Numbered from the stretch's first letter, positions 18,544 through 32,481 are shown. The stretch: 40,719 nucleotides of DNA from a virus (IMGVR_UViG_2734482569_000014), one strand, 5' to 3'. Program-made: numbers and translations. The notes: generated by a model not told the origin, from the letters alone.

Positions 18544-20019
18544 TTAGGAGCGCCAAAAAAAACCTGAAAACAATATAATAACAGGATAAATTTCAAGGCG
18601 ACCAAGAATCATAGCTATGCACATTAAATATTTTGCAATGTCATTAAGCACTCCGAATGACGATGCAGTAGCCCCAAAACCTAATCCCATATTATTAATA
18701 CATGCAGCCACTGTTGCAAATGATGTAAGAAAATCATATCCCATACCATTTAACACCAGTATAAAAAACACCGTGAAGAGAGTATAAAGAAAAAAGAAAC
18801 TCCATACAGACCTCATTACACGATCTGTAACTATCTTCCCTCCTACATTTACACTCAACAACGCTCTGGGATGAGAAAGCTGATTTATCTCGTGTTTGCT
18901 TTGTTTGAAAAGTATAAGAAATCGAAGTGACTTAATTCCACCACAGGTTGAACCTATACATCCCCCAAAGAAACTTGACAACAGCAAAAACACTATCGTG
19001 TGCGTGGGCCAGTTTGCATAATCCTGCGTAGCTAAACCATTATCAGTGAGCATGGAGCTGGCAAGAAAAAACGAATGAATAAAACTTCCATGCAAGTCAT
19101 ACATACCTATATGCCAGACCTGGAAAGAGGTAACAATGATCACCCCTAAGGCTATTAACAGAAAGAAACGAAGTTCAATATCTCTGATTAAAGGTTTTAT
19201 CGTTTTTCTGCTAATAACAATATACCAAAGAGTGAAGTTGAAAGCCGATAGCAGGGAAAAAGAACCAGCCACCAGCTCAACCAAATAGTTATTAAAATAT
19301 CCGATACTCTCGCTATGAGTTGAGAAACCACCAAGCGAAACTGTGGAAATCCCGTGACAAATAGCATCAAACAAAGGCATTCCTGCAAGTCTATAACAGA
19401 CAATACAAGCAATACCTAATAAAGAATAAGTTATCCACAGTGTCCGTGACGTATCGGCCAGGCGGGGAGTGAGTTTGTCATCCTTAAATGGCCCCGGCAT
19501 TTCTGACTGATAAAGCTTTGCACCACCAATACCCAATAATGGCAATACTGCAACCGCCAGAACAATAACTCCTAAACCACCTATAAAATTTAACTGTGAC
19601 CGATAGTACAAATATGCCCGAGGTAATGAACTAACATCATCAATTACAGTTGCTCCTGTTGTTGTTATTCCAGAAACCCCTTCAAACAGAGCATCAATGA
19701 ACGTTAAATTAAGTTCTGAGTCAATCCATAAAGGGAATGCACTAATAACAGAAAACAAAATCCAAAACATTACAATTATAATAAACCCATCACGGGTACG
19801 TAATTGAATGCCAGATTTCTTAGTTGTATACCACGCTCCGCCACCAATGCAAAAAAATATAACGAAAGTTATAAAGAAAACGAACAGGCTTTTTTCTTTA
19901 TAAAACAATGCTACAACCATTGGTGGCAACATTGAAAGACTATAGAGCCAAACCAGGAACCCACACATATGAGTAACAACTCTTACATGAGATGTATTCA
20001 TATCTAAATATTCTTTCAA
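18544..20019 (-). CDS. trkG: TrkG/TrkH-family potassium uptake membrane protein
   Basis: 491 aa polytopic membrane protein directly after Rz/Rz1, the position trkG occupies in Rac; AT-rich upstream region. Confidence 0.8.
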   Translation of the reverse strand: MKEYLDMNTSHVRVVTHMCGFLVWLYSLSMLPPMVVALFYKEKSLFVFFITFVIFFCIGGGAWYTTKKSGIQLRTRDGFIIIVMFWILFSVISAFPLWIDSELNLTFIDALFEGVSGITTTGATVIDDVSSLPRAYLYYRSQLNFIGGLGVIVLAVAVLPLLGIGGAKLYQSEMPGPFKDDKLTPRLADTSRTLWITYSLLGIACIVCYRLAGMPLFDAICHGISTVSLGGFSTHSESIGYFNNYLVELVAGSFSLLSAFNFTLWYIVISRKTIKPLIRDIELRFFLLIALGVIIVTSFQVWHIGMYDLHGSFIHSFFLASSMLTDNGLATQDYANWPTHTIVFLLLSSFFGGCIGSTCGGIKSLRFLILFKQSKHEINQLSHPRALLSVNVGGKIVTDRVMRSVWSFFFLYTLFTVFFILVLNGMGYDFLTSFATVAACINNMGLGFGATASSFGVLNDIAKYLMCIAMILGRLEIYPVIILFSGFFWRS

Positions 20020-21563: not shown

Positions 21564-21959
21564 CTAACCTCGCATGTCAAAGCCAGATTTCTGAAAATCT
21601 CTGTAGACTTCCGGATTGTTGAAGGCCGGAAATTTGGCTTTATGAGCTGCGGACTTTATCGCTTCGCAATAGGCTTTATCACCGTTACTGGTAGATATTT
21701 TTAACGCCGTGCCATCCTGAGAGAATTCCATATGCAACCTGCATTTTTTCCCTTTCCAGTTATGCGGCTCATCAAGTTTGGCATTAATTGCAGCTCTGAT
21801 TCCCCGCGCTTGCGCCCCCCATTCATCCTGATCATCCCAGCGTCCTGAACTGCAACTACCTGTAGCAGTAGTTTTGTGGCAATCTGAAGGGTGTAAAGGT
21901 GTGCATCCCGCAACAAAACCGACCCAAAAAGTCAACATAACGATTTTCTTTAATCCCAC
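21564..21959 (-). CDS. Lipoprotein with divergent TolA domain-III-like C-terminal module
   Basis: GTG start with GAGGAG SD; signal peptide plus lipobox FVAGC; C-terminal region shares the two-Cys pattern (GKKCRLHMEF...GDKAYCEAIK...PEVYRDF) with the paralogue at 22110..22538. Confidence 0.55.
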   Translation of the reverse strand: MGLKKIVMLTFWVGFVAGCTPLHPSDCHKTTATGSCSSGRWDDQDEWGAQARGIRAAINAKLDEPHNWKGKKCRLHMEFSQDGTALKISTSNGDKAYCEAIKSAAHKAKFPAFNNPEVYRDFQKSGFDMRG

Positions 21960-22109
21960 TTCTTGCTCCTCAATCCATTAAAATCTCAGCAATAGTAGTT
22001 GTTACGTCCGCCACTGGCTCAGAGCTGACTATCCGCTAAATTTAGCTCAGTGCCGTAGCTGTGTCAGAACAAACCTAAGCCGAAACCGTTTATTACAAAA
22101 CAATAAATA

Positions 22110-22538
22110 TCAGGGTTTAAAATCCAGCACCCCATTTTGAAATACTTTATATACTTCCGGCGAAGGGGGGGCAGGTATATCAGCATTCTTTATCGCATTC
22201 ATCGCTTCACGACATAAATCGAGGTCTCCACTTTCTCTTTTAACCTCCAGTAGAAGGCCATTCGGGGCCATATGCATTCTCAGTGTACACTCTTTTCCTG
22301 AATACTTACTCGCATCCCCGAACTGTTTTTCGATGGCGCTCTTGATTTGATGGGCATACAGACGGATATCCTCACTAACATCAGAAGTACGTTCAGATGA
22401 ACTCACATACTGTGTCTCTATTGCTTTATCGGAGTAATATGATGTACGGTCATGATAATTTGTCGATACAGCATCAGTGCACCCGATAATAATCCCACTA
22501 ATAATCAACGTAAGAATTGATGCGCTACGAAAACCCAT
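22110..22538 (-). CDS. Lipoprotein with TolA C-terminal domain (domain III)-like module
   Basis: Signal peptide plus lipobox IIGC; C-terminus YAHQIKSAIEKQFGDASKYSGKECTLRMHMAPNGLLLEVKRESGDLDLCREAMNAIKNADIPAPPSPEVYKVFQNGVLDFKP is near-collinear with the E. coli TolA C-terminal domain as I recall it. Confidence 0.7.
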   Translation of the reverse strand: MGFRSASILTLIISGIIIGCTDAVSTNYHDRTSYYSDKAIETQYVSSSERTSDVSEDIRLYAHQIKSAIEKQFGDASKYSGKECTLRMHMAPNGLLLEVKRESGDLDLCREAMNAIKNADIPAPPSPEVYKVFQNGVLDFKP

Positions 22539-23582: not shown

Positions 23583-24125
23583 TCAAGCCATTTTCTCAGC
23601 AAATGATTCACGCATGGGAATATATAGGGCATACTCAGCAACAGCTAACCAATTAGCAATCCGTTTTTCGCATGTGCTAAAACACCACTCTGGGTGTGCA
23701 TCATTTAGCAATTCAGCCATTTTGCGCTTAGTCATCCCCCGCCCTTCATAGCGTTGCCGGAGAATGCAAATCAATCCTGGATGCTCTGCCAGCACCTCAC
23801 TTATGACTCGATCAATACATAACGCCTCTGCATCAGTACAATGCGCCAGCCAGCTCTTTTGCTTGCCGTTGATCATCTCTCGCAAAAACGCTTCCAGCTC
23901 AGCTTTCTCTATTCCCGCTTTTTTCATTCTGCGCAGGGCTTCATTAATGGCTGTTTTCGTCAGTTTTTTGGATGCCAACAACTGATTGAACATATTCCCT
24001 GACCTGCCACCGCCAATATACGACCAGCGCCCCCACATACGTAGTTTTCCCTGAATCCAGACACTTTCCAGCGTGGTGAGGCGAAGGTGTTCTCCGCTTT
24101 TTCCTGTATTCGTTGGGTAAATCAT
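23583..24125 (-). CDS. Putative late antiterminator Q-like protein
   Basis: 180 aa ORF that is the last gene before the terminator and late-control gap upstream of the lysis cassette; assignment by position, family not verified. Confidence 0.4.
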   Translation of the reverse strand: MIYPTNTGKSGEHLRLTTLESVWIQGKLRMWGRWSYIGGGRSGNMFNQLLASKKLTKTAINEALRRMKKAGIEKAELEAFLREMINGKQKSWLAHCTDAEALCIDRVISEVLAEHPGLICILRQRYEGRGMTKRKMAELLNDAHPEWCFSTCEKRIANWLAVAEYALYIPMRESFAEKMA

Positions 24126-24412
24126 AAATGACCTTTCTTTCTCCAGATTTCTTGTGTGCGAAAAACCCCTTCAGCATGCATCAGGCGCAATTCTTCTTTG
24201 GTGTAATCGCTGGTTTTTACCCGCCCGTCGATTAGATCGTGGCATGAGCTACAGGCTATCGCCGCCTGCATATCATGTGGTTTTGTCGCTGTTCCGCACG
24301 TCCCCGCCAGCCTGTAATGCGCCAGCACAGAGGTTTCGGGATTGTGATTGCAGTAGCCAGGGATTCTGATCTGGCACATCTGGCCTTTAGCCGCTTTACG
24401 TAAATTCACCAT
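24122..24412 (-). CDS. YbcO-like (DUF1364) Cys-rich nin-region protein
   Basis: 96 aa with CQIRIPGYCNH...CSSCHDL cysteine pattern; same size as the DLP12 ybcO product as I recall. Confidence 0.5.
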   Translation of the reverse strand: MVNLRKAAKGQMCQIRIPGYCNHNPETSVLAHYRLAGTCGTATKPHDMQAAIACSSCHDLIDGRVKTSDYTKEELRLMHAEGVFRTQEIWRKKGHL

Positions 24413-25011
24413 TACGCAAACTCCAGTAGTTGTGCGGCCACATTTTCAACTTCCTCCTGAGAGGAGAATTTACGGAACAGAATCCAGTTCCACAGCACAT
24501 TCAGTACAGATTTATAAACCTGCTGAAACTCGACTTCGTCCATATTCGCAAAAGCGATGGATTTTGCCCGACGCCCACGGCTACCGTCCGGATAAATATG
24601 CTCGGTGTAAAATCCGGCCTGAATGGTTACCCACTCGCGGAAAGCCTCAAACGACTTTAGCAACGCCGTATCCCGGGTTCTACGAGTCGCAACGGTGTTA
24701 AGGTATTGCTCTGCGGCATCACTCAGGGCTGGCGTGTGTTCCCGACCAACTGATTCGCACAGGTAATCAACGAAACCAGACAGCAGTTCTCGTTCGCGAG
24801 GCGTGATCGCCCCACCGACCGGAGTCCAGTAATCGAATCCCAGTTGCAGGAGTTTGAAAAAACGCTTGTGGAATGCGTAGTTACGCACACGCTTAAAGTC
24901 TGCGTGTATCCACTCACCTATTTTGATTTGATGCAGAAAATCGCAACTCTCCGGCGTCGCCGGGAGAAGTAAACCAGAAGAGGTTTGTTTGACCAGTTGT
25001 ATATGCGCCAT
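24412..25011 (-). CDS. Nin-region hypothetical protein (DUF1367-like)
   Basis: 199 aa ORF upstream of the YbcO-like gene in the same operon; family guess from memory only. Confidence 0.4.
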   Translation of the reverse strand: MAHIQLVKQTSSGLLLPATPESCDFLHQIKIGEWIHADFKRVRNYAFHKRFFKLLQLGFDYWTPVGGAITPRERELLSGFVDYLCESVGREHTPALSDAAEQYLNTVATRRTRDTALLKSFEAFREWVTIQAGFYTEHIYPDGSRGRRAKSIAFANMDEVEFQQVYKSVLNVLWNWILFRKFSSQEEVENVAAQLLEFA

Positions 25012-25291
25012 TTCTCAATCTCTCGATGGCGCAGCGCAGCAGATGCCAGTTGTTCAGGCTGACGAATAAAGTATAAATAAACTGGCTATGGTGTAAAGCC
25101 CCACATAGCATGAACAAACACTACATATCAAATAGCTGGTACAAGGATAGAAATACGACACTTATTATTAAAAACGATTAGATAAATTACATTTTAATGT
25201 TATGCAAAAGTTCTTTTTTATCATAACATTTCAATAAAAGCATTACAGATGCAATCATCCCGTCATCATCAATTATTTAAGGTGGTTAAAC

Positions 25292-25378
25292 ATGGAAAAT
25301 AACAAGTTCGCACATCTCGCTCCTTTTTTATCCGTAATCCTTTTCGCTTGTTGTTTTATATGGGCATTATTTTTATAA
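25292..25378 (+). CDS. Small hydrophobic peptide (28 aa), candidate membrane peptide
   Basis: AAGGTGG SD 6 nt before ATG; hand translation MENNKFAHLAPFLSVILFACCFIWALFL; lies in AT-rich intergenic DNA; below track cutoff. Confidence 0.3.
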   Translation: MENNKFAHLAPFLSVILFACCFIWALFL

Positions 25379-25786
25379 AGTAGCCACATGATAAGTTGCT
25401 GGAATCATATTTCCCACTCAAGTCATTAACATTTGATAAGATATATCTAAAAGGACGCCTTTACATTATTTATGCGTATATAATTTATTTATATACACAG
25501 TAAAGGTATCCTGGGAAAATATTTATCGTTAAAAAATACATCATAAATAATTAAGCTGAAATTTCAGAACACAACTAATACACACAATAAGGTTCAGTAA
25601 CAGTAATCTATGTGGACTACATCGAGATTTTTTGATTAAACTTTAATAACTTATTCCTAACACACAGAATGCATAAACTAAAAGTAAAACAAATAGTTAT
25701 ACGAAAAACAACCATATTTATTCTATCTTCTCCTCTAATCAACATATCAATTATGTGTTTCATAACAGCTTGACATAACCCTCCAA

Positions 25787-25809
25787 AAGATGCATTTTTA
25801 ATGCATGTT
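25787..25809 (+). promoter_or_regulatory. NsrR-type operator-like inverted repeat upstream of the YeaR-like gene
   Basis: AAGATGCATTTTTAATGCATGTT: ATGCATT arms inverted around a short spacer; a perfect TTGACA lies at 25770..25775. Confidence 0.4.
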
Positions 25810-25824
25810 TTGGAGGAGGTGGTT

Positions 25825-26163
25825 ATGACACACAAGAGAATTCCTAAAGATTGGGTAATCAAACGCTCAACTCCGTTCTTCACAAAAGAGAACGTACCTT
25901 CAGCGTTATTAACACATCATAATACAGCAGCAGGTGTTTTTGGGCAGTTGTGCGTAATGGAAGGCACTGTAACATATTATGGTTTTACTGATGAGAATGC
26001 TACTGAACCGGAGATAAAAGTAGTCATTAATGCTGGCGCTTTTGCAACAAGCCCACCACAATACTGGCACCGTGTTGAACTAAGCGATGATGCTCAGTTT
26101 AATATTAACTTTTGGGTCGCTCCAGACTTTTCGGGCGAAAAAGTCTATAGCACCAAAAAATAG
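25825..26163 (+). CDS. YeaR-like DUF1971 protein (tellurite-resistance TehB-associated domain)
   Basis: Likely start MTHKRIPKDW with GGAGGAGG SD; strong resemblance to E. coli YeaR as recalled (RSTPF...FNI.F.VAP). Confidence 0.7.
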   Translation: MTHKRIPKDWVIKRSTPFFTKENVPSALLTHHNTAAGVFGQLCVMEGTVTYYGFTDENATEPEIKVVINAGAFATSPPQYWHRVELSDDAQFNINFWVAPDFSGEKVYSTKK

Positions 26164-26202
26164 ATGATCATATTAAAAATGCTTTAACAGTCAGACCCGG
26201 CA

Positions 26203-26240
26203 GGGCTATCCCCGACGGGTCTCATTTTTGTAAATATATT
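26203..26240 (+). terminator. Intrinsic terminator candidate after the YeaR-like gene
   Basis: AGACCCG...CGGGTCT inverted repeat followed by CATTTTTG on the plus strand, about 40 nt after the stop. Confidence 0.4.
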
Positions 26241-26783
26241 GGTTCTACATTGACAGGAGACTTCAACCATAAGAAGTAATCTGAATACTTGAGCAATAAA
26301 TTTACTTAAGATTAATGAGCGCACCTTGCCGGACAAAGATAAACCAAGGTAACACCTTTTTTCTAGCCAGTATGTAATCAATCAGAAAGCCGCTCCATAA
26401 GAACAACAGCAAGACAATAAATTGCCATTACAGCCGCAATAGCCAGCGCACATTTGAGAACCAGCACGACAACCCCCTGTATTAGACGCACACCAGTCCT
26501 GATAAATATGAGGCTGTCTCGTCAGTGATTCAATACAACTATTGGGTATAGTTTCTGTGATTTTATTCTGTAGAAATGGAACACAACAACCAGTCACCAC
26601 CAGCACTTCCTTAAATGCTCTAAGTCAGAAACAAGCCAACATTTTAGTCCGCTTTGAGCGATCTGCAGACATTGCTAGCAGCCTTCTGTGTGAATTCTCA
26701 GGGAGCAGGTCGGCATAGCATCACGTTGAGGCTCTTACCCTACTTGTTCACACCAACCCTAACTCCACAGACTGATTCATAAA

Positions 26784-27785
26784 TTAGTAATCTGCGTGTT
26801 TCGCACTTTTCAGAAATGCTTTCATATTTTCATTAGGTCGCTCAATTTCGAAGTTACTTCCATATAACTCTTGTAATTTTGGCCATAACTTACTTAATAA
26901 CCCTCTCCTGCGATAAAATGGATGTATCCAAACGGTAGATAGGTACGGAGAATTTGCATTTGAATTGTTTATTGTGACCAGCCCAACTAAACATTGTCGA
27001 TAACCACTATTATCCATTGATTGTATTTCTTCGACGAATGGATACGCGATTACATCAGTCCAACCATGATCGGTTGTATCCCATTGCATTCCGTCATGAC
27101 ATTCCTTCGACTGATAGCGGCGTAAAGCTACACACGCGAGCTTTTGCCAATCTGGAGAATTAATTGTGATCTCTTCATCGTATGACGCGCCTATTGGAGC
27201 GGGTATTGGTCTGATTAATCCAGCATGGCATTCATCATAGAACTTCATGTTTCCCTCAGAAACGTTGTGTACGTTGGGTTGCTCCATGTGTGCGCCATTC
27301 AAAAATAGCTCTGATAGTAGTGTATCTACACTGTAATCTTTATTGATTATTGTCGGCTTAGAGTTTTTCTTATTAAGGCCGCGAGTAACGATTTTTTGAT
27401 CAATGTTAACAACATGGAATAATCCGTCGGGGAGGCTAGCGAACCACGATGGGGCATCGGACCAGAATAGCATGCCTTTTGTACTTCTTAAGAGTTTAAT
27501 TAAGTTAATACAAGCTTCTTCACTAGTCTTGCCGTTGATGCGAAGTATGTTAGGACTAAAGTAATATTCATCCATATCAGGGAATGCAGCTTCGCAAAAC
27601 TCCTGTACATAATTTAGCACCTGGATTCTACAGAGATCATCATAGCTGGTAATAACTAAGGGGGTATCTTCATTACTATTATGATTATCAATAATGCAAT
27701 CTATAGCGAGACTTACTGCTTTGCGTATCACTTCAGTTGAATCTAACGACTCTAAAAATTTTGTCTTTCGTGTGCGAATATCCAT
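26784..27785 (-). CDS. Two-domain protein with C-terminal GNAT acetyltransferase-like domain
   Basis: 333 aa; C-terminal VWIHPFYRRRGLLSKLW resembles the GNAT acetyl-CoA-binding motif; N-terminal about 240 aa unassigned; AT-rich codon usage. Confidence 0.5.
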   Translation of the reverse strand: MDIRTRKTKFLESLDSTEVIRKAVSLAIDCIIDNHNSNEDTPLVITSYDDLCRIQVLNYVQEFCEAAFPDMDEYYFSPNILRINGKTSEEACINLIKLLRSTKGMLFWSDAPSWFASLPDGLFHVVNIDQKIVTRGLNKKNSKPTIINKDYSVDTLLSELFLNGAHMEQPNVHNVSEGNMKFYDECHAGLIRPIPAPIGASYDEEITINSPDWQKLACVALRRYQSKECHDGMQWDTTDHGWTDVIAYPFVEEIQSMDNSGYRQCLVGLVTINNSNANSPYLSTVWIHPFYRRRGLLSKLWPKLQELYGSNFEIERPNENMKAFLKSAKHADY

Positions 27786-27800
27786 GTATGACCTGCGCTA

Positions 27801-28823
27801 TTAAAATTCATGAATGAACGGTTTGTCATCTGGTTGCAAAATGGTGGTTTTATTCGTTGCTACATTTAAACTGTTGTAGAGCATAATTGCCAGGTTCGAT
27901 GCATTTTCAATCAGCGTTTCAAGATCCTGGTCTGTAATCACTACGAGGTTCCCTTCTTTATCCTTTCCACCACGATGCACTAAGTGATTTCGATTGAGGG
28001 TTGCCAATTCAATAGCTTCTATCGGACAGTCTTTTTGTACTTTTATATCGAATGTAGCTTCATAGCGGTCGATTACCTTTTTAGTGCTATGCCAGCTTGC
28101 ACTGATCAAGTGTTCCTTGATTGACCTGATTAGCTCTCCCCTAATTTTCTCGATGGGTTCACCCTTGAAAGGCAACGCAGCAATATCTTTGCTTACTTTA
28201 AATTCAGTCTTACCTTTTTCTATACAATTGGCTATGTAGACATCATCTTTCTCTATAGAATTAATGAATAGCTCAACATAAAGCGTTTCCAAAGCTGTAA
28301 TAACATTCGTGTAGAGCAAACTAAGCAAGTGGTTTTTTTGCTGTTGTTCAGTTTTATCTTTTGCAAGTTTTTTTATTTTATCGATATTATCAATGAATTT
28401 TAAATACGGATTACCGGAAGACGTTACAGCGTCGTAGATATCATCATCGTACCAATCATCTATATTATTTGAGTTTCCAGACCAGTCAAAACATTGTGTT
28501 TGTAATTCATCTACTAATTCCTCAATATACTCAGATTTAACATATTGACCGAAGATGGATTGTAGTTCTTCGCTCGCATCATACGGCCCGCCATATATGT
28601 AAGCATAGCCACCTTCTCTACTTTCATACGGACAAGCATTTGCCGGATCTTCAAAGTTTTCAAAGAACCAGTTTTTCATTACTTCGAGTTGATCTTTTTT
28701 GCTTATGTATTTTAAAGATTTTAGTGGAACTTTCTTTCCATTAACCTCGAAAACAATTTTCACGATGTAACGCTCCCTTGTATCAATTGCGCAACTATTA
28801 TACCACAGCGAAATACAGGGCAT
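27801..28823 (-). CDS. HEPN-motif protein (candidate RNase, Abi-like)
   Basis: Likely start MPCISLWYN with AAGGAGG SD (track ORF begins upstream at a GTG, 28892); C-terminal LNRNHLVHRGG fits the R-x4-H HEPN signature; AT-rich; 15 nt upstream of the GNAT gene on the same strand. Confidence 0.45.
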   Translation of the reverse strand: MPCISLWYNSCAIDTRERYIVKIVFEVNGKKVPLKSLKYISKKDQLEVMKNWFFENFEDPANACPYESREGGYAYIYGGPYDASEELQSIFGQYVKSEYIEELVDELQTQCFDWSGNSNNIDDWYDDDIYDAVTSSGNPYLKFIDNIDKIKKLAKDKTEQQQKNHLLSLLYTNVITALETLYVELFINSIEKDDVYIANCIEKGKTEFKVSKDIAALPFKGEPIEKIRGELIRSIKEHLISASWHSTKKVIDRYEATFDIKVQKDCPIEAIELATLNRNHLVHRGGKDKEGNLVVITDQDLETLIENASNLAIMLYNSLNVATNKTTILQPDDKPFIHEF

Positions 28824-28961
28824 AACCTGCCTCCTTAAACTAACATACCATGAGCCAGCAATGTCCGCTATTGGCACAAAGCGGACAACCACGCTAGCTC
28901 TCCCCTGTGCCAGAAAAATGTCAATTTACATATGAACTAATGCTCTTTGATCTAGTAACGT

Positions 28962-29393
28962 CTATAAATACCGAAGATTTCCTTGATAAAATGCCAGTAC
29001 ACGTTTCATAACTTCACTCTTCCGGCACTCGCGACAGATTATGTTCTGACGCCTGTCATAGCGGCGTATTTCTCCGTCTGGTAATGACCAGATAAGGTCA
29101 GGATCAACCACAACCGTTTTTTTCACCTTTGCCCTGGATAGTTTTTTGCGGGCGTTTTTCCAATCCTTACGAGCCTGTTCAGACGGGAATAACCCATAGC
29201 CAGAGTTGTATACATCGCCACTGGCAACCAACTCTCTGGCAAGAATGCTCATCAGATATCTTGTCGCACCTGTCTTGGCCTCCAGTTGCCTTAACGTCTC
29301 GCGCCCACTCTGGCGTACCAACTCAACAACCTGCTCCTTAATTTTTTCACGCTCTTCCTGTGTAAAAACTTTTGCCATAAGCGCCTCCGGCAA
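28962..29393 (-). CDS. Hypothetical early-operon protein
   Basis: 143 aa lysine/arginine-rich ORF with C-terminal CRECR pair; no family recognised. Confidence 0.35.
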   Translation of the reverse strand: MPEALMAKVFTQEEREKIKEQVVELVRQSGRETLRQLEAKTGATRYLMSILARELVASGDVYNSGYGLFPSEQARKDWKNARKKLSRAKVKKTVVVDPDLIWSLPDGEIRRYDRRQNIICRECRKSEVMKRVLAFYQGNLRYL

Positions 29394-30206
29394 TCACTTT
29401 TCCGACACAATACGACTGGAGGAATCGACAATCTGTCGGACAATATCCCGGTGCTTGTTCAGCTCCCGCAGCGCGGCGCAGACTCGCTCCCACTTCTGGA
29501 CATGATTTTTCGCCCGACGCAGTTCGCGGTTTGCCATATGCAGCGATGGTAAAACTAGGTCATCCGCTTGCGTTTCAGTAAACGATGGCAGCGACTGCAC
29601 AATGTCCGCCACAGTTTCTGTTTTAATATCTTCCTGTGTTGCCGCTTCCTGTACTGGTAACGCAACACCGGCTGGCTGAGGAAAGGCTTTACCATCAGTT
29701 TCCGCTACCGATGCAGCTTTCGGCTCTGCTGGTAAATTATCGCCCGGCATGCAGTAACGAAATTTACTGTTCTGGTTTACGCGAATCAGGCGTCCTTTGC
29801 TGATTGCCATTGCCAGCGTTGAAGCAACTTTGCGGGATGTTGTACCGAACAGCGTAGCCAGTTCATCCGCCGTTTGTGGTCCGCGTTGTTCAATCGTCGC
29901 GGTTAAATCGCACTCTGAGATTTTCACTACAGTTGCCGTGGTGGTTTCTTCCGGCAGTTCTGCCTGCATTGGCTGTTCCTGCTGAACGTTGTTATCAGCC
30001 ACACGCCAGGTGTACGCGCTTTTATCAACGAAACCAGCTTTTTTCAGTTCCCATAGTTCGTTCAGCACTTCTTCACGACTGATATCAAGTCGCGCAGCAA
30101 GTTCTATGGATGTGGCTTTTCCCATTGCTTTCAGTGCGTCAAAAACAGTCTCCATAAAAATTTCCTCCCGGTAAAAATTACTTCTCAATTCCTGGCTGGA
30201 CGACAT
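29394..30206 (-). CDS. YdaW-like hypothetical protein (possible winged-helix N-terminus)
   Basis: 270 aa ORF downstream of the DnaC-like gene; true start may be the internal [11 protein letters not shown]. Confidence 0.4.
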
Positions 30207-30924
30207 TCGGACGCCAGCTCTCCCAGTTAAAATTCACCCATCGCCCGCCGTTCATGGTCATGCGATCCATAATCCGCTCGCCGAGCAATGTTTTCATGGC
30301 CTCATAGTTCAGGTTTGTCAGCATCCCCACGCTGCGCATCGACGCTGTCCGGCGATCAACAATCTGGTGCAGCACCACCTGCTCGTTTTTCGTCTCGCGC
30401 TGAATGCCAATTTCATCAAGAACCAGCAGATCCACTTCGCATAGTTCCCGCAAAAATTTTTCGCCTGACTGCCCATCGTCATAGCTGGCGTGCAGGGCAC
30501 TCATAACATCAGCCACGGTAACCACAATCACTGTCTGACCGTCTTTCAGCAGGCGATTCCCGATAGCTGCCGCTAAGTGGTTCTTCCCGGTACCAGGTTT
30601 TCCGCTGAACGCAAAATTTGTACACCCGGTCATCAGTTCATCAGCGATGGATTTCGCCTGACTCAACGCGTATCGCTGCGCTTCGTTCTGCACCTGGTAA
30701 TTCGAAAACGAGCATTTGCGGTGCAATGGCTGGATGCCAGAGCGATTCAGAATTTTTTCCACCCGCAACTGACGATTCTGACGGTTGATCTCCTCACAAC
30801 GTTTCTGGCCTTCGGAAAGTTGCCACTCGCGCCACTCCGCTACCGTCTTGAATGGCGCGGTTACATGTGACGGGGCCAGTCTGCGGATACGTTCAAGAAC
30901 GTCGCCTGTCGCAATATTTTTCAT
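30178..30924 (-). CDS. ydaV: DnaC/IstB-like replication helicase loader
   Basis: Walker [16 protein letters not shown] and Walker B LLVLDEIG; follows the O-like gene. Confidence 0.85.
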
Positions 30925-30930
30925 GGTCAG

Positions 30931-31788
30931 TTACCCCCTGAAGCCTGGCGGGATCGCACTATCCGGTAACGAGACGGTGTTAACCTGTCGGAGTAACGTC
31001 TCAGGTCGAACACCTTTCGGCGCGAACAAGCCCTGGTATTCATTGGCGATGCTGTGTCGAATCACCTGCTCAGGTGAAAAACCCTGCTGGCGGAATTTTT
31101 CCAGCTCCCGTATCGCCCCGTTAGCGCCCTGCTCCGTTCGAATCGGTTTTCGCAATGCCTGGCGAAATTCAACCCACTCACGCCAAAGCGAGACAGAAAT
31201 CCAGTTCGGCAAAGCAATATCCAGAGGGTCAAACTTTTTGACACCTCGATTCCCCCGGGGGGGATTTAGGGGGGGATCTGTTTTTAGATCTTTATCTGTA
31301 TCTTTATTAGTTGCCTTTGTGTTGACATCATGTTCAAACACCACTTCAACATCTGTTTGAACACCTGTTAAATTTCTCTCTTGTTTTGTTTGAACATCTG
31401 CTTCCTTTCTGCTTCTTCTGGCCTGAACAGATGCTTTTCCTGCGGCTGATTTTTTGGTTAATTTTTCCCTGACTGATGCCAGATCTTCCTCAATCCGAAG
31501 ATGCACCCATTCCTCGCCGTTATCGCAAAAAAACTCCTGCAAGGATGGTTCAACATCAGCCCATCGCTCGTTAGTCAGACGGGCAATTTTTGCCAGCCTG
31601 TTTTTAGGTATTGGCTTTCCTGTTTGCCAGTAATTGAACATCAGCAACAAATACGCACCATGCTCCTCTGCTGACAAATGCATGGTGTCAGCCAGGTAAT
31701 CAGCTATGTACAGTTGCATGTATGGTAATGCGGCCATAATTGCCCCGTATGATGCTGCCCGGTGGCTTAGAATAAGCACAAACAGCAT
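30931..31788 (-). CDS. ydaU: Replication initiation O-like protein (YdaU-like)
   Basis: 285 aa; position between YdaT-like and DnaC-like genes; same length as Rac YdaU as recalled. Confidence 0.65.
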   Translation of the reverse strand: MLFVLILSHRAASYGAIMAALPYMQLYIADYLADTMHLSAEEHGAYLLLMFNYWQTGKPIPKNRLAKIARLTNERWADVEPSLQEFFCDNGEEWVHLRIEEDLASVREKLTKKSAAGKASVQARRSRKEADVQTKQERNLTGVQTDVEVVFEHDVNTKATNKDTDKDLKTDPPLNPPRGNRGVKKFDPLDIALPNWISVSLWREWVEFRQALRKPIRTEQGANGAIRELEKFRQQGFSPEQVIRHSIANEYQGLFAPKGVRPETLLRQVNTVSLPDSAIPPGFRG

Positions 31789-31800
31789 GGAAACTTTTGC

Positions 31801-32223
31801 TTAATGAACAATGACAGAATCGTCGGAAGACCCGCCGCCGCTGAAATGCGCTTTCCGGTAAACGGCTTGGACTGCATCATCATGCGCATCAATTGCCGTA
31901 CTTAACGCTTCCTGCGCCGCCAGTAATGCACGGCGTTCCAGGGTATCGAAGATGCAGAGTCGGTGACGCAGCTCGCGCGGAAGGATTGCCAGAATTGCTG
32001 GGATCAGCTTCTGAATTTTTTCTCTTTGCGTTTTCGTTTCACCTTTCAACCAACGGTGATAGATATTCTGCTGATTATTCCAGTCCTTGCCTGGTACCAG
32101 GGGCAATTCGCCGCCCCCCTGGCGCAGATATTCTTCAGTAATGGCATTGGCTACCCATGCCTGCCCTTTTTCGGCTGCCAGGGCTAACAACACTGACTCG
32201 ATGTGCTCATGCTTGATTTTCAT
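31801..32223 (-). CDS. ydaT: YdaT-like protein
   Basis: 140 aa, same length and position as Rac YdaT (downstream of cro-like ydaS). Confidence 0.65.
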   Translation of the reverse strand: MKIKHEHIESVLLALAAEKGQAWVANAITEEYLRQGGGELPLVPGKDWNNQQNIYHRWLKGETKTQREKIQKLIPAILAILPRELRHRLCIFDTLERRALLAAQEALSTAIDAHDDAVQAVYRKAHFSGGGSSDDSVIVH

Positions 32224-32474
32224 GAATCAACTCCCATCAGCTTTTTCGTAGTAGTTTTATTTCTGCCAATAGTTAAAATTACATCAGCAGAAAATAATCC
32301 GTTTGATGCATGAGCGATTTTTTCAGCGTAATTTGTTTCGCCGGTATATTCTGTGCGAGGCAATTTTCCGTTATCCATCCATTTGTAGATTGCTCTTTGG
32401 CTGACACCACAAACGTCGGCCACAACAGAAACGCGAACAGTTTTGATTACATCTTCAAGTGTTTTCTGGTTCAT
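32220..32474 (-). CDS. ydaS: Cro-like HTH regulator (YdaS-like)
   Basis: Likely start MNQKTLEDVIK; HTH segment CGVSQRAIYKWMDNGKLP; divergent from racR. Confidence 0.6.
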   Translation of the reverse strand: MNQKTLEDVIKTVRVSVVADVCGVSQRAIYKWMDNGKLPRTEYTGETNYAEKIAHASNGLFSADVILTIGRNKTTTKKLMGVDS

Positions 32475-32481
32475 ATCACCC

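Follow-up and report, generated by a model that had tools for sequence, protein, structure and literature searches.

A DUF1971 gene carried by a Rac-type temperate phage of Escherichia coli is probably a lysogenic-conversion gene, or moron, with a captured sigma-70 promoter and NsrR operator, which would be repressed by NsrR, released by nitric oxide (NO) and translated into a protective protein. NsrR is a host Fe-S repressor of the Rrf2 family that acts as an NO sensor. The gene was analysed in a 40,719-nucleotide viral contig, IMGVR_UViG_2734482569_000014 (hereafter the window), and compared with its alleles and orthologs.

The window is an almost complete Rac-type E. coli prophage, extending from tail gene J to the integrase. 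A 12-kb stretch of it was compared with NCTC10444 and other strains and proved 99.9% identical. As the preliminary description of this DNA had pointed out, the DUF1971 gene runs against its surroundings: it is the sole plus-strand gene amid phage genes that lie on the minus strand throughout both flanks.

23583-25011, minus strand: nin-like genes (DUF1133, DUF1364, DUF1367), on one flank of the DUF1971 gene
25380-26362, no strand assigned: the DUF1971 cassette (moron), 983 bp, delimited by blastn against Rac-like prophage L123 (NZ_CP123260)
26784-32475, minus strand: cargo and replication genes, on the other flank

The limits of the cassette are set by comparison with L123, which lacks the DUF1971 gene. 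In blastn alignments the DNA common to both prophages stops at 25379 and restarts at 26363, and between the same two points L123 carries a 454-bp hokD segment (L123 3175-3628). A swap site lies between the ninB-like DUF1367 gene and the variable cargo, and it holds either hokD or the DUF1971 cassette. Base composition also sets the cassette apart, with 27.5% GC upstream of the coding sequence and 41% within it, compared to 46% for the window. The proposal that this is a self-contained moron is therefore borne out: the gene forms an autonomous unit with its own -35 hexamer, Shine-Dalgarno sequence (SD) and terminator, its GC content is atypically low, and it is present or absent among related prophages, with hokD as the alternative.

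Other cargo surrounds the cassette. To its right, a variable region from 26661 to ~28860 differs among carriers. The minus-strand interval 26784-28892 contains one gene for a 333-aa protein with a weakly GNAT-like C-terminus (E 9e-4) and a second for a 320-363 aa protein with a weak HEPN/RES match in its N-terminal domain (E 2e-4). PADLOC gave no meaningful match for either, and the two may represent an uncharacterised toxin-antitoxin or defence pair. Further non-phage-like cargo is found between the lysis and Q-like genes, where trkG and genes with a TolA C-terminal domain lie on the minus strand at 18544-20001 and 21564-22370; the potassium transporter gene trkG is a known Rac moron. A search of 24900-26900 against Rfam returned a meaningless miRNA as its sole match (E 0.13).

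The elements of the cassette itself are as follows.

25770-25775, plus strand: -35 hexamer TTGACA (6/6), read from the sequence
25780-25816, plus strand: extended palindrome, with 7 more complementary bp per side (CCTCCAA / TTGGAGG) than the operator, the right arm containing the SD
25787-25809, no strand assigned: NsrR-type operator, an 11-1-11 inverted repeat, AAGATGCATTT-T-TAATGCATGTT, identified by its matrix score
25793-25798, plus strand: probable -10 hexamer CATTTT (3/6), inside the left half of the operator, placed by its 17-bp distance from TTGACA
25812-25819, plus strand: Shine-Dalgarno sequence GGAGGAGG (GGAGG), read from the sequence, 5 nt before the ATG
25825-26163, plus strand: coding sequence for a 112-aa DUF1971 protein of the STM1808 subgroup (Pfam PF09313, E 2.3e-26)
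26193-26231, plus strand: intrinsic-terminator-like hairpin followed by CAUUUUUGU, from RNA folding

Every element named in the preliminary description was found where it had been placed, although two of its readings require adjustment. The first concerns the protein, which had been described as strongly resembling E. coli YeaR. The family assignment stands, with a PF09313 match that is full-length (profile positions 1-80 of 80), but the close likeness to YeaR does not: alignment gives only 41% identity to the K-12 protein, compared to 79% over the full length with P0014, a dsbB-linked protein of Salmonella. Translation is taken to start at ATG 25825, which lies downstream of the SD and agrees with the RefSeq annotation; the mechanically defined open reading frame begins at 25801. 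The P0014 gene directly follows fadR-nhaB-dsbB in Salmonella, a position that in the LT2 gene order is that of STM1808. On this basis, and because the histidine positions discussed below also match, we take P0014 to be STM1808. Judged by alignment, the phage protein belongs to the STM1808 subgroup of DUF1971 and is closer to STM1808 than to YeaR or TehB.

RefSeq labels the product either 'DUF1971 domain-containing protein' or 'TehB family protein'. The NCBIfam TehB model matches the N-terminal domain only and falls far under its cut-off. Nor does the locus qualify as an ortholog of the yeaR-yoaG operon, given the limited identity to YeaR together with the absence of both a downstream yoaG (DUF1869) and NarL heptamers. 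By homology, the fold is known from PDB entries 3DL3 ('tellurite resistance protein B', 119 aa; E 3.5e-59) and 3BB6 (YeaR; E 1.6e-24). Both resemble the phage protein in sequence, and both are structural-genomics entries without assigned biochemistry.

Close relatives with 73-82% protein identity occur in Kluyvera, Pantoea, Leclercia, Citrobacter, Klebsiella, Raoultella, Salmonella, Vibrio, Aliivibrio, Photobacterium and Shewanella. The closest, at 80-82%, come from Kluyvera, Pantoea and Leclercia, and even here DNA identity is only 72% and synonymous sites are saturated (pS ~0.9). A search for the donor among these relatives yielded none that could be named.

Salmonella STM1808 is said to bind zinc, to protect against nitrosative stress and to support growth in systemic infection, and Karlinsey and colleagues reportedly found that two histidines, His32 and His82, are needed for its zinc binding and NO resistance. 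Both residues are found at exactly these positions and are invariant in our alignment, the window protein included, which fits this role. Membership of the STM1808 subgroup further strengthens the link to NO, since STM1808 has been published as belonging to the NsrR regulon and as playing a part in virulence (Karlinsey et al. 2012, cited by PMC7527575 and PMC7082413).

The palindrome upstream of the gene had been likened to the NsrR operator consensus and, contrary to the poor score that the preliminary description named as speaking against this idea, it scores highly on a matrix of published sites. Scored against a position weight matrix (PWM) built from the 27 NsrR 11-1-11 sites of E. coli CFT073 (Mehta et al. 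2015, PMC5320621 Table 4), the 23-bp sequence AAGATGCATTTTTAATGCATGTT reaches 26.7 bits, just under ytfE. In leave-one-out scoring, ytfE reaches 29.4, hcp 23.3, yeaR 20.9 and hmp 16.9 bits, and the candidate outscores every published CFT073 site but ytfE. The training set consists partly of predicted sites; a matrix restricted to ChIP-positive sites ranks the candidate the same, second after ytfE (25.0 bits, P 5e-10). The analytic P for the full matrix is 7.6e-11 per position, corresponding to 3e-6 expected matches in the window and ~4e-4 per whole genome, and the second-best match in the window scores only 12.3 bits. Expressed as ln P, the site lies near -23 against a published PatSer cut-off of -14.28, the two matrices not being identical. 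It matches the ytfE operator at 20/23 positions, and its right half-site, reverse-complemented to AACATGCATTA, agrees with the left half-site at 9/11. Half-sites of the expected form with a 1-bp spacer, a score in the range of verified sites, and overlap with the core promoter around a predicted transcription start site (TSS) together mark it as a candidate E. coli-type NsrR operator. Motifs for Fur, FNR and NarL upstream of the phage copy are at chance level (the best Fur match, 13/19, is equalled by 37% of shuffles), and no NarL heptamers were found there. By motif, therefore, NsrR is the only recognisable regulator upstream of the gene.

The second adjustment concerns the promoter. The perfect -35 hexamer, the strong SD and the downstream hairpin with its T-run are all present, and the operator overlaps the promoter as suggested, spanning the -10 and the predicted TSS in a layout that is conserved among orthologs. 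The refinement is that the -10 is weak in the window allele. An alternative, TTTAAT/TATAAT at operator positions 11-16, was rejected as the main -10, since its distance from TTGACA is 21 bp and the spacing of 17-18 bp conserved among orthologs points to positions 7-12. In the terminator, AGACCCG (26193-26199) pairs with CGGGTCT (26216-26222) ahead of CATTTTTGT, producing a 7-bp GC-rich outer stem and a 3-bp inner stem. No T-run follows the hairpin on the minus strand, so it reads as a terminator for the plus strand only, and no open reading frame lies between the stop codon and the terminator. A generic scan called neither promoter nor terminator, because the -10 falls under its threshold and the terminator loop exceeds 8 nt; both elements were assigned by comparative alignment and folding.

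Comparison across genera gives independent support to the NsrR interpretation. We scanned the 300 bp upstream of each ortholog, drawn from one-genome-per-species contigs and from IMG/VR. All enterobacterial orthologs examined carry an NsrR box of 20.7-30 bits (24-30 bits in all but Salmonella enterica diarizonae, with 20.7), centred 27-39 bp before the ATG; one Leclercia copy is an exception, with its box shifted by 1 bp. Box-bearing genera comprise Kluyvera, Leclercia, Pantoea, Enterobacter, Pseudescherichia, Silvania, Buttiauxella, Citrobacter, Klebsiella, Raoultella and Salmonella. In most Vibrionaceae and Shewanella copies no box was detectable with the matrix used, which is that of E. coli. 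Across ~60 distinct ortholog promoters the layout is constant: a -35-like hexamer, 17-18 bp, then a -10-like hexamer coinciding with operator positions 7-12. The -35 hexamer is TTGACA in the phage, TTTACA in the Kluyvera group, TTGACG in Klebsiella and Raoultella, and TTGCCT in Citrobacter, while operator positions 7-12 read CATTTT in the window and TATTTT, TATATT or CATATT in orthologs. Box and geometry have thus been retained while synonymous sites became saturated, which indicates selection rather than recent common descent. Since the NsrR box and its promoter layout are shared by enterobacterial orthologs, gene, promoter and operator very likely entered the phage together, as a single unit.

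A subset of these orthologs carries an additional element. In loci L006-L027, from Kluyvera, Leclercia, Pantoea, Pseudescherichia and Buttiauxella, a strong Fur box lies directly upstream of the -35, ~84 bp before the ATG; one example, GATAATGAGATTCATTATC, matches the consensus at 17/19 positions and stands alongside the NsrR box. The presence of both boxes implies dual control by iron and NO, as predicted from these motifs, for this DUF1971 subgroup. The Kluyvera-group orthologs that carry the Fur box are also those closest in protein sequence to the phage copy, and the Kluyvera locus L006 is ordinary chromosome adjoining murQ/PTS-like genes. Neither the phage copy nor the dsbB-linked Salmonella, Citrobacter and Klebsiella copies have the Fur box.

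We are now able to propose how the cassette would work. In a lysogen without NO, NsrR would bind the inverted repeat, covering the -10 and the likely start of transcription (~25805) and excluding RNA polymerase. NO would nitrosylate the NsrR cluster, NsrR would leave the DNA, and the TTGACA promoter would fire. The short leader with its strong SD would then be translated into a small, metal-binding, cupin-like protein, and the monocistronic transcript would end at the downstream hairpin. As the gene is antisense to both early(-right) and late phage transcription, its expression would be expected mostly while the prophage is repressed, the usual pattern for lysogenic-conversion genes, and the host probably gains from the prophage one more stress gene that NO can induce. 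Within this model, which we infer from sequence comparison, we place more confidence in NsrR binding and less in the protective phenotype, and the TSS is a predicted one.

The operator varies between phages. Three alleles occur among the IMG/VR loci: AACACGCATTTATAATGCATGTT (20.7 bits, n=17), AAGGTGCATTTATAATGCATGTT (26.6 bits, n=11) and the AAGATG... type found in the window (n=6), which scores 27.8 bits on a uniform-background matrix. In the commonest E. coli allele the left half-site is weakened to AACACGCATTT, at 20.7 bits. When the window was compared with 31 distinct E. coli prophage alleles in 40-bp bins, the operator/leader interval 25785-25824 contained 12 variable sites, more than any other bin of the upstream cassette; the bins next to it had 3-9, and those of the coding sequence 0-3. 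This variability, together with the weakened half-site of the commonest allele, suggests that regulation may differ between alleles or be drifting. Comparison of E. coli alleles shows the coding sequence to be under purifying selection (pN/pS 0.09), and almost all 35 E. coli-type IMG/VR loci have it at full length. In other alleles, a t-to-a change produces a perfect TATAAT at the operator centre.

These observations bear on a rival explanation, that NsrR binds without regulating or that the promoter is dead, leaving the operator as a relic and the gene silent or expressed by read-through only. Some promoters are indeed bound by NsrR without being regulated by it, a class proposed by Mehta et al. 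(PMC5320621), and the 3/6 match of the -10, the failure of the generic scan to call the promoter, the variation hot spot at the operator/leader and the degraded half-site of the commonest allele would all be compatible with decay. We count each of these points, together with the lack of a box detectable by the E. coli matrix in most Vibrionaceae orthologs, against our own proposal. Nonetheless, we consider a dead or unregulated promoter unlikely. A perfect TTGACA is maintained at the conserved 17-bp spacing, the coding sequence remains intact across alleles under strong purifying selection, and all three operator alleles score at or above ~20 bits, a level close to that of yeaR and higher than that of hmp. 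Furthermore, transcripts reading through from upstream would have their SD locked in a hairpin of about -25 kcal/mol, so that expression would need the cassette's own promoter.

This hairpin arises from the extension of the operator into a longer palindrome. As RNA it folds with -25.1 kcal/mol (z -5.6), and only a transcript begun upstream of 25780 can form it. An extension of 7-11 bp per side is seen in the E. coli phage, Citrobacter (L028-L053) and Salmonella (L004) copies. Compensatory changes occur at paired positions among E. coli alleles (C..G to A..T) and among Citrobacter species, where tggcatCtat/ataGatgcca in one corresponds to tggcatTtat/ataAatgcca in another. The extension could reflect a function of the RNA or DNA hairpin, or homogenisation of a quasi-palindrome by template switching. 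It is possible to argue from the added complementarity, which takes in the SD, from the stability of the fold and from the compensatory changes that the palindrome is mainly a nucleic-acid hairpin that blocks or insulates against incoming upstream transcription and hides the SD. We regard this as very unlikely, as the central 23 bp keep the NsrR consensus across genera beyond what mere complementarity would demand, the extension is slight or missing in Kluyvera-group and Klebsiella copies, and the conserved -35/-10 pair would start the transcript inside the right arm, where the hairpin becomes impossible. The hairpin is more likely an added layer than an alternative to NsrR control.

Another suggestion is that the operator serves as an NsrR sponge, such that replicating phage DNA titrates scarce NsrR and switches on hmp, ytfE and hcp, with the DUF1971 gene secondary. 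Multicopy NsrR sites do derepress the regulon, an effect exploited in the 'repressor titration' assay (Bodenmiller & Spiro 2006, as cited in PMC5320621), and the phage operator is among the best NsrR matches known. Set against this, the coding sequence is itself strongly conserved, the commonest allele has a weaker rather than a stronger operator, and the operator-gene unit is single-copy on the chromosomes of many genera; we consider the sponge slightly more improbable still than a pure hairpin. Finally, the palindrome might match NsrR by chance or serve a different regulator, for instance a phage repressor or IscR. This reading would draw only on AT-rich palindromes being generally abundant between phage genes and can be given almost no weight in view of the P value and window expectation above, the same box upstream of non-phage chromosomal orthologs in many genera, and the lack in the prophage of the second copy that phage operators would require.

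Returning to NsrR repression and NO release as the preferred reading, the cassette can be placed among known systems. It most resembles STM1808: besides their 79% protein identity and shared His32 and His82, both genes have an NsrR 11-1-11 box over the -10 (AAGGTGTATATTAAATACACCTT, 25.6 bits, in Salmonella) and both are monocistronic with their own terminator. The low DNA similarity between the two reflects saturated synonymous sites. They differ in that STM1808 is chromosomal beside dsbB whereas the window gene is cargo of a Rac-type prophage, in the -35 hexamer (consensus TTGACA in the phage, TTGTTT in Salmonella), and in that the data on NsrR regulation, zinc binding and virulence are those of Salmonella, the phage copy being known from its sequence.

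The yeaR-yoaG operon of E. coli is regulated by NsrR and NarL. It shares with the phage cassette a DUF1971 gene and an NsrR box in its promoter (AAATGGTATTTAAAATGCAAATT). Unlike this operon, however, the phage gene is followed directly by a terminator, and its operator is nearer the consensus, at 26.7 bits against ~21 for yeaR. As at ytfE and hmp, the classical NsrR targets of E. coli, the phage operator overlaps the core promoter, so repression would exclude RNA polymerase; the gene product is a different one, and the phage site is located on a mobile element. HokD of Rac/Qin-like prophages is likewise a small autonomous unit, present or absent in the same slot between the replication/cargo region and the ninB-like gene, but it is a type I toxin-antitoxin locus, whereas the DUF1971 cassette is predicted to be a stress-response gene wired to a host transcription factor.

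The cassette is common. It is present in 466 of 5426 complete E. coli genomes (~8.6%), almost always as a single chromosomal copy, as well as in a Shigella flexneri genome (L005) and in 35 IMG/VR viral contigs. Three GenBank phage records contain the gene; all stem from a study of prophages in clinical-isolate genomes and are no proof of an active phage. The plasmid collection yielded only distant DUF1971 genes of the chromosomal type. E. coli K-12 is not known to carry such a gene at the corresponding position. CFT073 evidently lacks the cassette too, judging by the exhaustive site list of Table 4, in which no such site appears (PMC5320621).

While NsrR operators, the NsrR-regulated STM1808 and phage morons are each well known, what would be new here is a member of the E. 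coli NsrR regulon that is strain-specific and delivered by a phage. Our literature search found no paper describing the cassette or linking NsrR to a prophage-borne DUF1971 gene. A further, quite unlikely reading would combine several layers: NO induction through the NsrR operator, palindrome arms that lock the SD in foreign transcripts, and titration of NsrR driven by replication. If this were true, an operator amplified, for example, upon NO-triggered SOS induction would soak up NsrR and switch on the host NO-defence regulon, keeping the cell alive until lysis, and the rapid turnover of operators among near-identical alleles would represent a tuning of NsrR affinity.

A prophage gene under NsrR control may not surprise a specialist, yet the case is clean, common in the population and relevant to phage-borne, ready-wired resistance. 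It places a gene of the STM1808 kind on a temperate phage in about one in twelve complete E. coli genomes and in a Shigella genome. If our proposal is correct, the cassette would be a strain-specific member of the NsrR regulon that has been missed by regulon maps based on K-12 and CFT073, and a clear case of a phage spreading a ready-regulated trait for resistance to innate immunity.
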